Assembly (NCBI GenBank): GCA_021811325.1
Contig: JAJZPE010000005.1
Coordinates: forward strand, 1-55,050
DNA from: Bacillota bacterium
Lineage (GTDB): Bacteria > Bacillota > Sulfobacillia > JAJYWN01 > JAJZPE01
Length of the DNA: 55,050 nt
Direction of reading: 5' to 3'
Position 1 is the stretch's first letter. Every line of letters begins with the position of its first letter. Below are positions 40,984-47,866 of the stretch, in pieces. A program made the translations under genes and the position numbers. Under the pieces are notes generated by a model. That model was not told where the DNA came from, did not search any database, and worked only from the letters and a program-made list of their open reading frames with translations.

Positions 40984-44483
<3,500 letters not shown>

Positions 44484-44500
44484 TCAAGTGGTGGCCGCCG

Positions 44501-44749
44501 TCACAGGCCGGCCAGGACCCGCCGGGTCACGGTCACGTCGAGGTGGCGCGGCCCCGCGGCGTCGGAGATGATGCAGGGGAGGTTGACGTTGGTCACCGGC
44601 CGCCGTTCGAGGTCGGCCAGCACCCGCCGGGCGGCGTCGAGCAGCTGGCCCCAGGCGCGCCGGTCGCCCCGCAGGTCGATGCCCTCGCGGGCCTGGAACT
44701 CGCCGGCCAGGTAGGCGGCGACCGCCTCGAGGCTGGGCCCCTCGCTCAC
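44501..44749 (-). CDS. 82-aa protein equivalent to DnaK/Hsp70 nucleotide-binding subdomain IIB only
   Basis: GAGGAGGT-N7-GTG start. YLAGEFQAREGIDLRGD..LLDAA..NVNLPCI..DAAGPRHLDVTVTR aligns by eye with the DnaK pattern L..EFK...GIDL..D..L..AA..INLP.I..D..GP.HL...LTR. Located between the chaperonin and dnaJ. Confidence 0.75.
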   Translation of the reverse strand: MSEGPSLEAVAAYLAGEFQAREGIDLRGDRRAWGQLLDAARRVLADLERRPVTNVNLPCIISDAAGPRHLDVTVTRRVLAGL

Positions 44750-44780
44750 ACCCAAGACCTCCTCGAGCCCTTCGCCGGTG

Positions 44781-44824
44781 ATTCCCCGCCGGGGATTCCA
44801 CCGCCGGGGATTCCACCGCCGGGG
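44781..44824. repeat. Three tandem copies of ATTCC(A)CCGCCGGGG
   Basis: 44781-44794 (14 bp), 44795-44809 and 44810-44824. Confidence 0.85.
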
Positions 44825-44828
44825 CGGT

Positions 44829-46424
44829 CTAGAAGCTCTTCGAGAAGTCCTCGCCGGATGCGCCCGAGGAGCCCGCGGCGGCCAGGTCCTTCTGCTCCTT
44901 CATCTTGATGATCGTATCGATCCTCAGGATGGCCTCGGCGATCTCGCCGGCGGCCTTGAGGGCGTGGATCTTGACCAGGGCCGGGTCGACCACGCCGAGG
45001 TCGAGCATGTCGGCGATGTCCCCGGTGTCGCAGTTGACGGCCAGCGAGTCGCGCTTGCGGCGGGTCTGCGCGGCGATGACGTCGCCGACCTTCTCCAACG
45101 GGTTGAAGCCGGCGTTGCCGACGATCTGGGCCAGCGGCTTCTTGAGGGCCTCGACGACGCAGTCGAGGCCGTAGACGCTCATCCCCTTGGCCCCGTCGCG
45201 GTGCTTGGCCAGCTCGCGCCCGACGGCCAGCTCGATGGCCCCGCCGCCGGGGACCACCCCGGCTTTGAAGGCCACTTGGACCGACGAGGCGGCGTCTTTG
45301 GCGATGCGCTCACGCTCGCCGACGACTTCTTCGGTGGCCGCGCCGACGAGGATGGTGGCCATCGGCTTCCCTTTGCCGCCGACGATGCGGACCTGCTCGA
45401 GTTTCTCATCCTCGTAGACCCGGTCGGCCCGGCCAAGGTAGCGCTCAATCTCGTCGGGCTCCTTCTTGAGGGCCGTCCGCTTGACCATCCTGGCCCCGCT
45501 GTGCTCGGCCGCCTTGCGGAGCTCGCGTGACGAGACACGGCTGAGGACCAGGACGCCGGCGTCGGTGAGCAGTTCATCGGCCGCGTCGTCGACCCCGCGG
45601 TCGACCAGGACGACGGTGACCCCGAGGCCCACGAGCTTCCTCAGGTTCTTCCGGAACTCGTCCTGGAGTTCCATGTAACGGGCGAAACCGGCTTCGGTCG
45701 AGAGGGCCTCGTCCTCGATCTCCTCAGGCTCAAGGGCGTCGTCGACGATGAGGACGCGGGCGTCCCGGATGTCCTTCGGCATCTGCTTGTTGAGGCGTTC
45801 CTTGTCGATGATCACCCCGAGGAAGACCTCGTTCTCCGCGCCCTCCTCGGAGATGACCGTGTCGGCCAGTTTGAAATGGGTCTCGACGAGCTTCTCGGGC
45901 CCGATCATCCGGGCCGCGCCGACCACCAGGTCGGCGATGTCCTCGTGCTCGCGGCCGGCGATGAGGGCCACCCGCCGGAGGAGCGGGTCGTCGAGGCCGT
46001 TGACCTTGATGGCCTTTTCCTTGATGAGGTCGACGGCCTTCTTGATACCGTAGCGGACGCCGTCGATGACCCGGGTCACCGGGACGCCGCGGGACACCTG
46101 GTTGACCCCCTCTCCGAGGAGCGCGCCGGCCATGATCGTGGCCGTGGTCGTCCCGTCGCCGACCTCCTCCTCCTGGGCCTTGGCGGTGTTGATGACCATC
46201 CGGGCGGCCGGGTGGTTGACCTCCATGCGGGTCAGGATGGTGATGCCGTCGTTGGTGATGACCACCTCGCCGAAGCGGTCGACGAGCATCGTGTCGAGGC
46301 CCTTCGGCCCGATGGTGCCCTCGACCGCCGAGGCGATGGCCCGCACGGCGTTGGCGTTGGTGAACAGCGCGGCCAACCGCTCGTCGACTTCAGAGCCGCT
46401 GGAGATCTGCTTGACGTTGGACAA
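44829..46424 (-). CDS. Thermosome-like (group III) TCP-1/Cpn60 chaperonin
   Basis: GTIGPKGLDTMLVD, ITNDGITIL, HPAA, EVGDGTTT, PGGGAIE, GVVDP..VK..A..ILRID. These are archaeal-type rather than GroEL-type motifs, and the gene sits directly after hrcA with an AAGGAGG RBS. Confidence 0.9.
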   Translation of the reverse strand: MSNVKQISSGSEVDERLAALFTNANAVRAIASAVEGTIGPKGLDTMLVDRFGEVVITNDGITILTRMEVNHPAARMVINTAKAQEEEVGDGTTTATIMAGALLGEGVNQVSRGVPVTRVIDGVRYGIKKAVDLIKEKAIKVNGLDDPLLRRVALIAGREHEDIADLVVGAARMIGPEKLVETHFKLADTVISEEGAENEVFLGVIIDKERLNKQMPKDIRDARVLIVDDALEPEEIEDEALSTEAGFARYMELQDEFRKNLRKLVGLGVTVVLVDRGVDDAADELLTDAGVLVLSRVSSRELRKAAEHSGARMVKRTALKKEPDEIERYLGRADRVYEDEKLEQVRIVGGKGKPMATILVGAATEEVVGERERIAKDAASSVQVAFKAGVVPGGGAIELAVGRELAKHRDGAKGMSVYGLDCVVEALKKPLAQIVGNAGFNPLEKVGDVIAAQTRRKRDSLAVNCDTGDIADMLDLGVVDPALVKIHALKAAGEIAEAILRIDTIIKMKEQKDLAAAGSSGASGEDFSKSF

Positions 46425-46464
46425 TCAGGGCCCTCCTTGATGGACACCGCGTGGGAAACGCCCG

Positions 46465-47511
46465 TCACCGCCGCATCTGGCGGGTGAGGACGTCGGTCAA
46501 TTGCCCGGAGACGTAGCTGACGACGGACATGACATGGCCATAGCGCATGCGGGTCGGGCCGAGGACGCCGACGGCCCCCATGACCCGCTCGCCGGCCCCA
46601 TAGGCGGCCATGACCAGGCTGCAGCTCTGCAGCTCCTGATAGGGATTCTCCTCGCCGATGTAGACCTGCACGGGGCCGGCTTGGGGTTCGCTGAGCAGCG
46701 CCGACACCAGGTGCTCGCGCTCCAGGAAGCCGAGCAGGTCGCGGACGACGTCAAGGTCGCCGAAGTCCGGCTGGCTCAGGATGTTGGCCGTGCCGCCGAG
46801 GTAGACCTTGTCCTCCGCGTCGGCCTGCCCGGCGCGGCCGAGGGCGTCGAAAATGGTGCTGATGAGGCTCCGCCGGCCCGTCGACCCGGCGTTCAGCGAG
46901 CGGACGAAGCCGCGGGTCAGCTTGCCGAGGATCATCCCGCGCAGAATCTCGTTGAGGCTGCGGGAGACCCCGGTGAGGTCCTCGTCGGTGAGGCCTTCGG
47001 GGAGGTCGATGACCCGGTGCTCGACCAGGCCGACGTCGGTCGAGAGGACCATCAACAGGCGGTCGCCGGGCAGCCGGACCAGCTTGAGGTCGCGGAAGAC
47101 GGCCCTGGCGTAACGCGGCCCGAGGACCATCGCCGTGTAGCTGGTGGCCTCCGAGACCAGCCGGGCCGTCTGCTGGATGAGGGTCTCAGCGTCGCGCGGG
47201 CTGTCGTAGGCCTCCCTTATCCAGCGGGCCTCGACGTCCTCGAGGTCCTCGGGGTGGGTGAGGGAGTCGACGTAAAAGCGGTAACCCCGGCTGGACGGGA
47301 CGCGCCCGGCCGAGGTGTGCGGCTGCTGCAGGTAGCCCAGGGTGTCCAGCTCGGCCGTCTCGTTGCGGATGGTGGCCGGGCTGACCCCCAGGTCGTGGCG
47401 GGCGAGCAGAGCCAGGGAACCGACCGGCTCACCCGTCCGGATGTAGTCCTCGACCAGGGCCATGAGGATGGCCCGTTTCCTGGGGTCCAGGCGTTGCGCC
47501 GTCTCAGGCAT
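46465..47511 (-). CDS. hrcA: Heat-inducible transcription repressor HrcA
   Basis: RKRAIL..YIRTGEPVGS, SPATIRNE, QPHTSAGRVPS..GYRFYVD, IGEEN, GPTRMRY. Confidence 0.95.
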   Translation of the reverse strand: MPETAQRLDPRKRAILMALVEDYIRTGEPVGSLALLARHDLGVSPATIRNETAELDTLGYLQQPHTSAGRVPSSRGYRFYVDSLTHPEDLEDVEARWIREAYDSPRDAETLIQQTARLVSEATSYTAMVLGPRYARAVFRDLKLVRLPGDRLLMVLSTDVGLVEHRVIDLPEGLTDEDLTGVSRSLNEILRGMILGKLTRGFVRSLNAGSTGRRSLISTIFDALGRAGQADAEDKVYLGGTANILSQPDFGDLDVVRDLLGFLEREHLVSALLSEPQAGPVQVYIGEENPYQELQSCSLVMAAYGAGERVMGAVGVLGPTRMRYGHVMSVVSYVSGQLTDVLTRQMRR

Positions 47512-47602
47512 CCTCTTCCCTCCCGCGGGGCTCGGGTGAGCCGTTCGTCGCGCAAACCTTAGTGGAGCCTGCATTTGGCAAATCGTCGGACGGTTCTTCA
47601 CT

Positions 47603-47629
47603 CTAGCACTCCCGCCCGGCGAGTGCCAA
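47603..47629 (-). promoter_or_regulatory. CIRCE operator
   Basis: TTGGCACTC-N9-GAGTGCTAG on the minus strand. Confidence 0.92.
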
Positions 47630-47640
47630 CCCTAAGATAG

Positions 47641-47669
47641 AACATAGCATCACCAGGAAACCCTGTCAA
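47641..47669 (-). promoter_or_regulatory. sigA promoter of the hrcA operon
   Basis: TTGACA-N17-TATGTT with extended TG, just upstream of CIRCE. Confidence 0.8.
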
Positions 47670-47866
47670 GGCACGACCACGGCGATCAAGCTGGCCACGT
47701 TTTCAGCCACTGGGGGCTGGACTTCATCACCGTGATCCACGTCCGTGGTAACGCCGCGCGTAAACGGCTGGCCGGGCAAGACGAGAAGTCATCGCTGCGT
47801 CCGTCAGCTTAGCGGGCCCCGGCGATCACCAAGGCGCGCGCGGCCACCCTTACCGGAGAGTCGGCG

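Follow-up and report, generated by a model that had tools for sequence, protein, structure and literature searches.

The window analysed here, 55,050 nucleotides (nt) of contig JAJZPE010000005.1 from a Bacillota bacterium of the class Sulfobacillia (assembly GCA_021811325.1), carries on its minus strand the genes lepA, hemW, hrcA, a chaperonin gene, a very short gene, dnaJ and a prmA-mtaB fusion. The very short gene, called mini below, encodes 82 amino acids (aa) and is homologous to a single lobe, subdomain IIB, of the nucleotide-binding domain of the chaperone Hsp70 (DnaK). Its coding sequence lies at 44501..44749 on the minus strand and consists of 82 codons and a TGA stop (44503-44501), starting from a GTG (44749-44747) with the Shine-Dalgarno sequence GAGGAGGT (44757..44764, minus strand) exactly 7 nt 5' of it. 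In this, the sequence and a scan for start codons and Shine-Dalgarno motifs agree with the original prediction, which had described an 82-codon frame with a near-perfect ribosome-binding site and its own stop between the chaperonin gene and dnaJ. An alternative TTG start at 44755 would give 84 codons, yet it is just 1 nt from the Shine-Dalgarno sequence. The chaperonin gene ends 79 nt upstream of mini, and a spacer of 26-38 nt with its own Shine-Dalgarno sequence separates mini from dnaJ, whose likely ATG, at 44462, is 38 nt past the mini stop.

Mini is a homolog of Hsp70 subdomain IIB and of nothing else. Residues 11-81 match positions 229-298 of the 599 positions in the Pfam HSP70 profile (PF00012) with E 1.6e-8, and the score of 33.7 bits exceeds the gathering cut-off of 20.6, which places mini in the Hsp70 family by sequence. 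In a phmmer search of the PDB, E. coli DnaK residues 237-306 pair with residues 13-82 of the 84-aa form (E 5e-12); we take subdomain IIB to span about 228-310. A match to this lobe only had been seen by eye, and the profile and the alignment confirm it; no further Hsp70 sequence was found between the end of the chaperonin gene and the start of dnaJ. The same alignment shows that the DnaK helix AEKAKIELS reads ARRVLADLE in the mini of the window, also as predicted. Over 75 aligned columns mini shares 40% identity with E. coli DnaK, and it keeps the core residues F244, G249, D251, A258, L273, P284, H295 and L296 (E. coli DnaK numbering, used throughout).

Structurally, mini is predicted to form the same unit. 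The AlphaFold2 model, made from a 33-row alignment, has a pLDDT (predicted local distance difference test) of 92.6 and a helix-helix-hairpin-helix fold, with helices at residues 7-22, 30-47 and 76-81 and strands at 52-63 and 66-75. Foldseek places the model on lobe II, subdomain IIB, of DnaK (TMq 0.87-0.90, root-mean-square deviation (rmsd) 0.8-1.0 Å, 75 columns), including 5oow_A (E 1.9e-7, TMq 0.87, rmsd 0.9 Å), and the best 26 matches listed are all DnaK or mortalin. The model thus has the two helices, beta-hairpin and closing helix that define the IIB lobe in DnaK (1DKG, 5OOW). Unlike DnaK, mini stands alone. Although homologous to Hsp70, it lacks what defines a working one: lobes IA, IB and IIA and the phosphate-binding loops of a complete ATPase domain are absent from the 82 aa, and so are the interdomain linker and the substrate-binding domain.

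The 3' end of the gene has a peculiarity of its own. A 34-nt direct repeat with 85% identity is found inside mini at 44493-44526 and 44598-44631; in a hand translation the last codons TRRVLAGL, the stop and the following RRP mirror the internal helix ARRVLADLERRP, and the likeness extends past the stop codon. In the family of the window, the 3' end looks as if it had been rebuilt from an internal copy.

Mini is not confined to the window. A search of 61 genomes from its class gave, in addition to DnaK from almost all of them, short open frames of 85-144 aa in 13 other genomes, and 13 of the 14 fetched loci with short IIB-like frames have the order hrcA-cpn-mini-dnaJ (cpn is the chaperonin gene). 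When a profile built from 14 minis was run against all 210 genomes of the class, two more came to light, G099 and G101, and each has this gene order. Mini is thus present in at least 16 of the 210 genomes, from seven families, a lower bound because there are 81 weaker matches besides those listed. By family, it occurs in 3/3 genomes of f1, 1/1 of f2, 3/3 of f29, 2/2 of f14, 3/3 of f15, 2/2 of f24 and 2/4 of f18. Internal stops are absent from all 16 copies, a start codon is present in all 14 aligned copies, and the homologous part begins and ends at the same DnaK positions across families, with short variable tails. The stand-alone homologs of about 80 aa that the original prediction proposed to look for between chaperonin and dnaJ genes of relatives do therefore exist. 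One genome (G051, contig C1; locus L048, 6273-6617, minus strand) has a second short IIB-like frame with no chaperone genes nearby. This frame includes the GGEDFD motif that precedes IIB and could be a piece of another, divergent Hsp70 paralog.

In a set of 5.8 billion proteins we found 18 short homologs of 79-107 aa, and the best 150 matches include, at 50% identity, at least 16 representatives of the mini type. PF00012 is also carried by 13 of 24 database homologs, and some of the short homologs are named at the source as 'Hsp70 family protein [Bacillota bacterium]', 'molecular chaperone DnaK' and 'hypothetical protein'. The Protein Atlas has clusters of Hsp70 fragments of about 77 aa, given without context. 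Mini has thus been annotated automatically in databases, and no printed account of a free-standing IIB protein, or of an operon with the order cpn-mini-dnaJ, was found in the literature outside subscription journals. It is restricted to uncultured Bacillota and evidently dispensable.

The source genome is a bin of 248 contigs. The stretch 43300-47700 is, however, present in sequencing runs from at least three studies. A contig of 5181 base pairs from another sample covers 43300-47486 with 6 differences and one 15-nt repeat unit missing, and contigs from two further studies bridge both mini junctions (dnaJ-mini and mini-cpn). An assembly collapse is excluded, because contigs from three studies reproduce the junctions and 15 other genomes share the gene order. 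Separately, three runs have contigs in which 43833 is joined to 44695, with an identical 10 extra letters between the two sides; no repeat explaining this joint was found, and it may come from the contig of another organism.

Mini is under purifying selection. In five independent within-family pairs, the ratio of nonsynonymous to synonymous substitution rates (dN/dS; Nei-Gojobori, NG86) is 0.24, 0.17, 0.32, 0.14 and 0.25, values from a simple counting method applied to GC-rich codon usage, with dS saturated in one pair. The 95% upper bounds from the bootstrap are 0.32-0.54, and no replicate reached 1. For the flanking genes of the same pairs, dN/dS is 0.06-0.19 (cpn) and 0.06-0.43 (dnaJ). Classing the columns by their variability in other families, which avoids circularity, gives 0.13 at columns conserved elsewhere and 0.49 at variable columns. 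The latter value is still below 1 (pN 0.27 vs pS 0.46, z about 3.4 by hand estimate). Frameshifts, stops, a lost start, variable ends of the homologous part and a dN/dS near 1, as a pseudogene would be expected to have, were not found. The proposal that mini has been exapted, and is not chance debris of dnaK, has therefore held up: synteny extends over at least 16 genomes and 7 families, the frames are intact and dN/dS is 0.14-0.32, and missing homologs, neutral evolution, frameshifts and assembly collapse were each tested for and none was found.

A comparison of 14 minis with 47 DnaKs of the class reveals what has been kept and what has been lost. Conserved in minis are F244, G249, I250, D251, L252, D255, A258, L262, A265, A266 and L273 in the first part and V281, L283, P284, F/C285, I286, G292, P293, H295, L296, D297 and T301 in the second. 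Across the mini families the start Met, G249, A258, L273, P284, P293 and H295 are invariant or nearly so. In contrast, Q260, R261, E264, E267, K270, E272, S274 and A303, all invariant in 47/47 DnaKs, are free in minis, and so are K268, K294 and K304, which are nearly invariant in DnaK. R261 is found in 0/14 minis (L6 K4 Q3 T1), position 264 has R5 Q4 K2 D1 plus others, position 267 R6 A3 E3 K1 plus one other, position 270 L7 R4 plus others, and S274 is variable; roughly half of the minis have Leu at several of the DnaK-invariant positions. Their net charge, 0 to -4 vs -3 to -6, makes them less acidic than the IIB of DnaK. E267, K270 and S274 are, we presume, nucleotide contacts in DnaK. According to PMC2940730, R261 of DnaK contacts M174 of GrpE, and all four classes of nucleotide-exchange factor bind mainly to helices 8-9 and the hairpin of IIB. 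Hence the cleft-facing residues R261, E264, E267, K270 and S274, which mark nucleotide and GrpE contact, are not conserved in minis, unlike in the IIB of DnaK. This pattern suggests to us that the constraints tied to nucleotide and GrpE have been lost while the fold was retained.

The chaperonin is present in 33 of the 61 relatives, and the fetched loci fall into three operon states. State A, hrcA-cpn-grpE-dnaK-dnaJ, is found in seven genomes, of which one carries it twice; the locus of G042, cut right after cpn, was grouped with them as an eighth. State B is hrcA-cpn-mini-dnaJ. State C, hrcA-cpn-dnaJ with cpn abutting dnaJ, is found in 11 genomes. The slot between cpn and dnaJ in these shorter operons holds an intact mini or nothing, and no decayed intermediates were seen among the fetched loci. 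A scan of named genomes with the chaperonin of the window gave 78 loci, of which 67 have grpE(-dnaK-dnaJ) after cpn, so state A is the common form, as it is for group III chaperonins in PMC5635000 and PMC5220055. State A taxa include heliobacteria, Pelosinus, Tepidibacillus, Syntrophomonas, Thermosyntropha and a Paenibacillus; the other 11 loci comprise one of state B, one of state C, four cut after cpn and five archaeal thermosomes. A reverse case is the metagenome-assembled genome Bacillota bacterium Bin_42 (L178, 4680-4853), in which a 58-aa chaperonin remnant lies between hrcA and grpE-dnaK-dnaJ, so that the chaperonin and not dnaK is reduced.

All genomes of states B and C have their DnaK at a separate, second locus, while state A genomes show the operon DnaK only. 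In the source genome, a full-length dnaK stands at the edge of contig C166 with a MerR-family gene directly upstream, and the C-terminal end of dnaK, followed by grpE and a second dnaJ, is found on contig C196. The working Hsp70 locus, merR-dnaK-grpE-dnaJ2, is thus split over two contig ends (G000 C166:1-1900 and C196:1-2600; L001, L097). Among second-locus dnaK genes, a MerR-family gene lies upstream in 22/25 and grpE downstream in 23/25, the other two being cut by contig ends. Actinobacteria have dnaK-grpE-dnaJ loci controlled by HspR/MerR, and the second locus resembles these in the MerR-family gene beside dnaK-grpE-dnaJ2 but differs in that this gene is upstream of dnaK and not at the end of the operon. 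It may be HspR.

In the DnaK tree, the DnaKs of state B and C genomes and those of six chaperonin-less genomes form a clade with support 100, which excludes all eight state A operon DnaKs. Two very divergent extra Hsp70 paralogs, L075 (G030:C51, 629 aa) and L098 (G047:C3, 577 aa), sit on long branches of this tree. The minis side with the operon type: 14/14 score higher on an operon-type than on a second-locus-type IIB profile, by 0.9-10.4 bits, D297 and T299 are common to minis and operon-type DnaK, and the mini of the window is 37% identical to the DnaK of its own genome and up to 50% identical to operon-type DnaKs elsewhere. Because of these scores, residues and identities, the simplest reading is that mini is the remnant of the operon's own dnaK, left after the second Hsp70 locus had made that dnaK redundant.

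The neighbouring genes and signals are those of a heat-shock operon. The chaperonin gene (44829..46424, minus strand, 531 aa; Pfam Cpn60_TCP1, E 4.9e-111) has its best PDB matches in 5x9u and 5x9v (E 1e-144), with archaeal thermosomes at 1.6e-72 or weaker. We take 5x9u and 5x9v to be the group III chaperonin of Carboxydothermus hydrogenoformans, which was reportedly described in its hsp70 operon originally in 2010. In the named-genome scan the window chaperonin is 49-91% identical to the chaperonins of 73 bacterial loci, with hrcA upstream in each. Being nearer to the bacterial thermosome-like proteins than to archaeal group II and following hrcA, it can be classed by its sequence as a group III (bacterial thermosome-like) chaperonin. 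On the other side of mini, dnaJ (43323..44474, minus strand) is of type I with a zinc-finger domain (Pfam DnaJ, DnaJ_CXXCXGXG and DnaJ_C). Upstream of the chaperonin gene, hrcA (46465..47601, minus strand; Pfam HrcA, E 5.4e-59) is given as its longest open reading frame (ORF), and the true start is probably further downstream.

Next to hrcA, a CIRCE-like inverted repeat, the HrcA operator, lies at 47603..47629 with 2 mismatches to the consensus (1 match vs 0 expected, from 100 shuffles). It is preceded by a promoter-like site of the sigma-70 type, TTGACA-17-TATGTT, at 47641..47669 on the minus strand, upstream of both CIRCE and hrcA. This site matches 10 of 12 consensus positions in a scan that gave 2 sites vs 0.1 expected. 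No terminator-like sites were found on the minus strand from hrcA to dnaJ. CIRCE thus lies between the promoter and the first gene, as in an HrcA/CIRCE regulon, and HrcA regulation can be predicted. By these signals, mini is an internal gene of an HrcA-type heat-shock operon.

Three further features were noted around mini. The spacer between cpn and mini contains 3.5 copies of a 15-nt tandem repeat, CGCCGGGGATTCCAC (44773..44824, not assigned to a strand; Tandem Repeats Finder), whose unit is partly self-complementary; one unit is missing in the contigs of runs X5 and X6 (a 15-nt deletion at 44782). In G001, of the same genus, a TnpB/IS605 OrfB-type gene (L037, 6717-7859, minus strand; Pfam OrfB_IS605, Cas12f1-like TNB and HTH_OrfB_IS605) lies between mini and dnaJ in an insert of about 1.4 kb, and mini is intact. 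Downstream of dnaJ in the window, PrmA (L11 methyltransferase) and an MtaB-like UPF0004/radical-SAM protein are encoded in one uninterrupted frame at 40984-43323 on the minus strand, as judged from Pfam matches. The ORF has 994 aa, and its first 215 aa or so overlap dnaJ in another frame and are probably untranslated.

We suggest that mini is a real protein-coding gene whose product, a small protein, is the IIB lobe left over from the DnaK that the operon once encoded, and we consider this explanation probable overall. In a set of uncultured Bacillota, the second locus merR-dnaK-grpE-dnaJ2 would supply the working Hsp70 system. The operon could then have lost grpE and all of dnaK except codons of about 229-310, and the remaining piece of 80-110 aa would have gained its own start and ribosome-binding site. 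Since then it would have been retained by purifying selection as an autonomously folding small protein, co-transcribed with the chaperonin gene and dnaJ from the CIRCE/HrcA-controlled promoter and, in many relatives, translationally coupled to dnaJ. Because the contact residues that are invariant in DnaK have decayed, mini would no longer work through nucleotide or GrpE contacts.

It can be speculated that mini serves the heat-shock network as a small module for docking between proteins. If we had to name one role, it would be that of an accessory to the chaperonin and DnaJ encoded beside it, keeping a contact once made by the operon's DnaK; we offer this docking role as a guess that is unlikely to be correct in this exact form. 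Contact or cooperation between DnaK and the chaperonin has been proposed in the group III chaperonin papers (PMC5635000 and PMC5220055). It is doubtful, but conceivable, that the IIB lobe was the very part of the operon DnaK that touched the chaperonin, was kept as a dedicated cofactor of the thermosome-like chaperonin and is more broadly a portable module. Such a cofactor would dock to the lid or apical domain, comparable to a minimal prefoldin or an adaptor for Hsp70 hand-over. A complex prediction for the chaperonin and mini, a single run without controls, gave ipSAE values of 0.00 and 0.00, which speak neither for nor against binding. In any case mini would be helpful but dispensable, as sister lineages have cleanly deleted it.

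Several observations weigh against a retained, functional lobe with a single history. The IIB-segment tree places the minis on one side of a branch with 53% support, in an alignment of only 87 columns and with the minis on very long branches. The chaperonin-only tree has an unresolved backbone. In the tree of HrcA, Cpn and DnaJ combined, which has a weak backbone, the full-operon genomes as one clade are marginally rejected (p-AU 0.028, approximately unbiased test), state B as one clade is rejected (p-AU 7e-30), and states B and C are intermixed. Within family f18, the mini genomes G019 and G099 group at support 100 with the mini-less G043, so that one loss of mini is visible inside this family. 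That the homologous part begins and ends alike in every family would favour one origin of mini followed by several losses. Mini is absent from the 11 of 33 chaperonin-bearing relatives in which cpn stands directly before dnaJ. Its dN/dS is above that of cpn in the same pairs, and its branches are 2-4 substitutions per site long vs 0.1-0.3 for IIB inside DnaK, so mini evolves about ten times faster than the lobe within its parent. The invariant and nearly invariant columns look, from their residue types, like positions that keep the fold, and no conserved surface patch marking a common partner was seen across the mini families. The AlphaFold2 model may lean on the DnaK structures known to the predictor. 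All mini-bearing genomes are metagenome bins, and no RNA runs containing the stretch of the window were found; one metatranscriptome run has just two short partial pieces of 90-95% likeness, outside mini.

Some of these points would be expected if mini were a relic ORF without its own function, the open frame aiding dnaJ through translational coupling and its sequence constrained only for folding and non-aggregation. The mini stop is 0-5 nt from the dnaJ start, or overlaps it, in 7 of 12 readable junctions (the spacing at one of the seven, L038, was taken by eye from the printed junction), and the variable Glu/Gly/Arg-rich tails encode the dnaJ Shine-Dalgarno sequence. The fold-core conservation, the fast evolution and the repeated, clean loss of mini all fit this as well. 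However, cpn-dnaJ works without an intervening ORF in the 11 state C genomes, so that coupling through mini is not needed, and mini has remained intact in G001 despite the TnpB-type insert before dnaJ. Moreover, the variable columns are still constrained, 9 of the 14 chosen mini starts are preceded by an SD-like (Shine-Dalgarno-like) motif of their own, and one would expect a useless insert of 250 nt to be lost rather than to persist across whole families. Retention of a relic for coupling or foldability is the chief rival, but state C, the insertion and the constraint on variable columns all weaken it, and we judge it unlikely.

The surviving lobe could instead act as a decoy for GrpE or a regulator of the DnaK cycle, as free IIB that binds GrpE or the middle domain of ClpB and tunes nucleotide exchange or the coupling to the disaggregase. 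The IIB surface is the one shared by all four exchange-factor classes, as noted above (PMC2940730), mini is predicted to keep the fold, and the source genome has GrpE and two Clp-type ATPases. The residues tell against it: R261, the GrpE M174 contact present in 47/47 DnaKs, is in none of the 14 minis, which weakens the idea, and E264, E267, K268, K270, E272, S274 and K294, invariant or nearly so in DnaK, vary in minis. The GrpE belongs, furthermore, to the second-locus DnaK and mini descends from the other DnaK type. An isolated IIB would also lack the IB and IA contacts that are part of the DnaK-GrpE complex in 1DKG. We therefore regard a decoy as a poor bet. A decaying pseudogene or an assembly or binning artefact, which might be suspected for a fragment of a larger gene in a GC-rich genome, where long chance ORFs are common, from a bin of so many contigs, is very improbable given 16/16 intact frames, dN/dS well below 1, junctions reproduced in contigs from three studies and the lack of decayed intermediates.

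A selected IIB lobe left over from the operon's own DnaK, the explanation we prefer, can be compared with known systems. The operon resembles the hsp70 operon of C. hydrogenoformans (PMC5635000 and PMC5220055) in having hrcA, a group III chaperonin gene, dnaJ last and CIRCE upstream. It differs in that grpE and dnaK are replaced by the 82-aa IIB-only gene, with dnaK-grpE at the second, MerR-associated locus. The passages used from these two papers contain no mention of an IIB-only variant of the operon.

A profile search with mini also revealed IIB-only segments (Pfam HSP70 positions of about 213-304) in unrelated architectures. These are a TIR domain with two IIB segments (P0025), a tandem double IIB of 163 aa (P0026), a large surface protein with InlB repeats and Fib_succ_major and two IIB segments (P0027), a single IIB of 91 aa (P0044) and FHA domains with one to three IIB segments (P0033, P0034, P0036, P0040 and P0042), most of the latter with a hydrophobic stretch read as a membrane helix. 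By eye, P0025, P0026 and P0044 keep the DnaK-like surface motifs KEAxEKA..EL and NLPFITAD..GPKHL, and the FHA-linked forms are more diverged. Unlike these proteins, most of which are fused or duplicated, mini is single, diverged at its surface and tied to the cpn-dnaJ operon. Together they suggest that IIB is a reusable module, perhaps a recognition module in the TIR and FHA proteins.

Hsp70 ranks among the protein machines studied most closely, and its lobes are normally considered only within the complete ATPase. One lobe that has long been kept by itself, under selection and in a heat-shock operon, shows that IIB can be an independent evolutionary, and probably functional, unit. If it is true that mini keeps the contact of DnaK with the chaperonin, then mini marks the interface, and it would offer a handle on a question in the group III chaperonin papers, namely whether, and by what means, the DnaK system and the thermosome-like chaperonin communicate. 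Finally, the three operon states, with the full grpE-dnaK, with the IIB-only gene or with an empty slot, form a natural series for the dismantling of a redundant chaperone gene.

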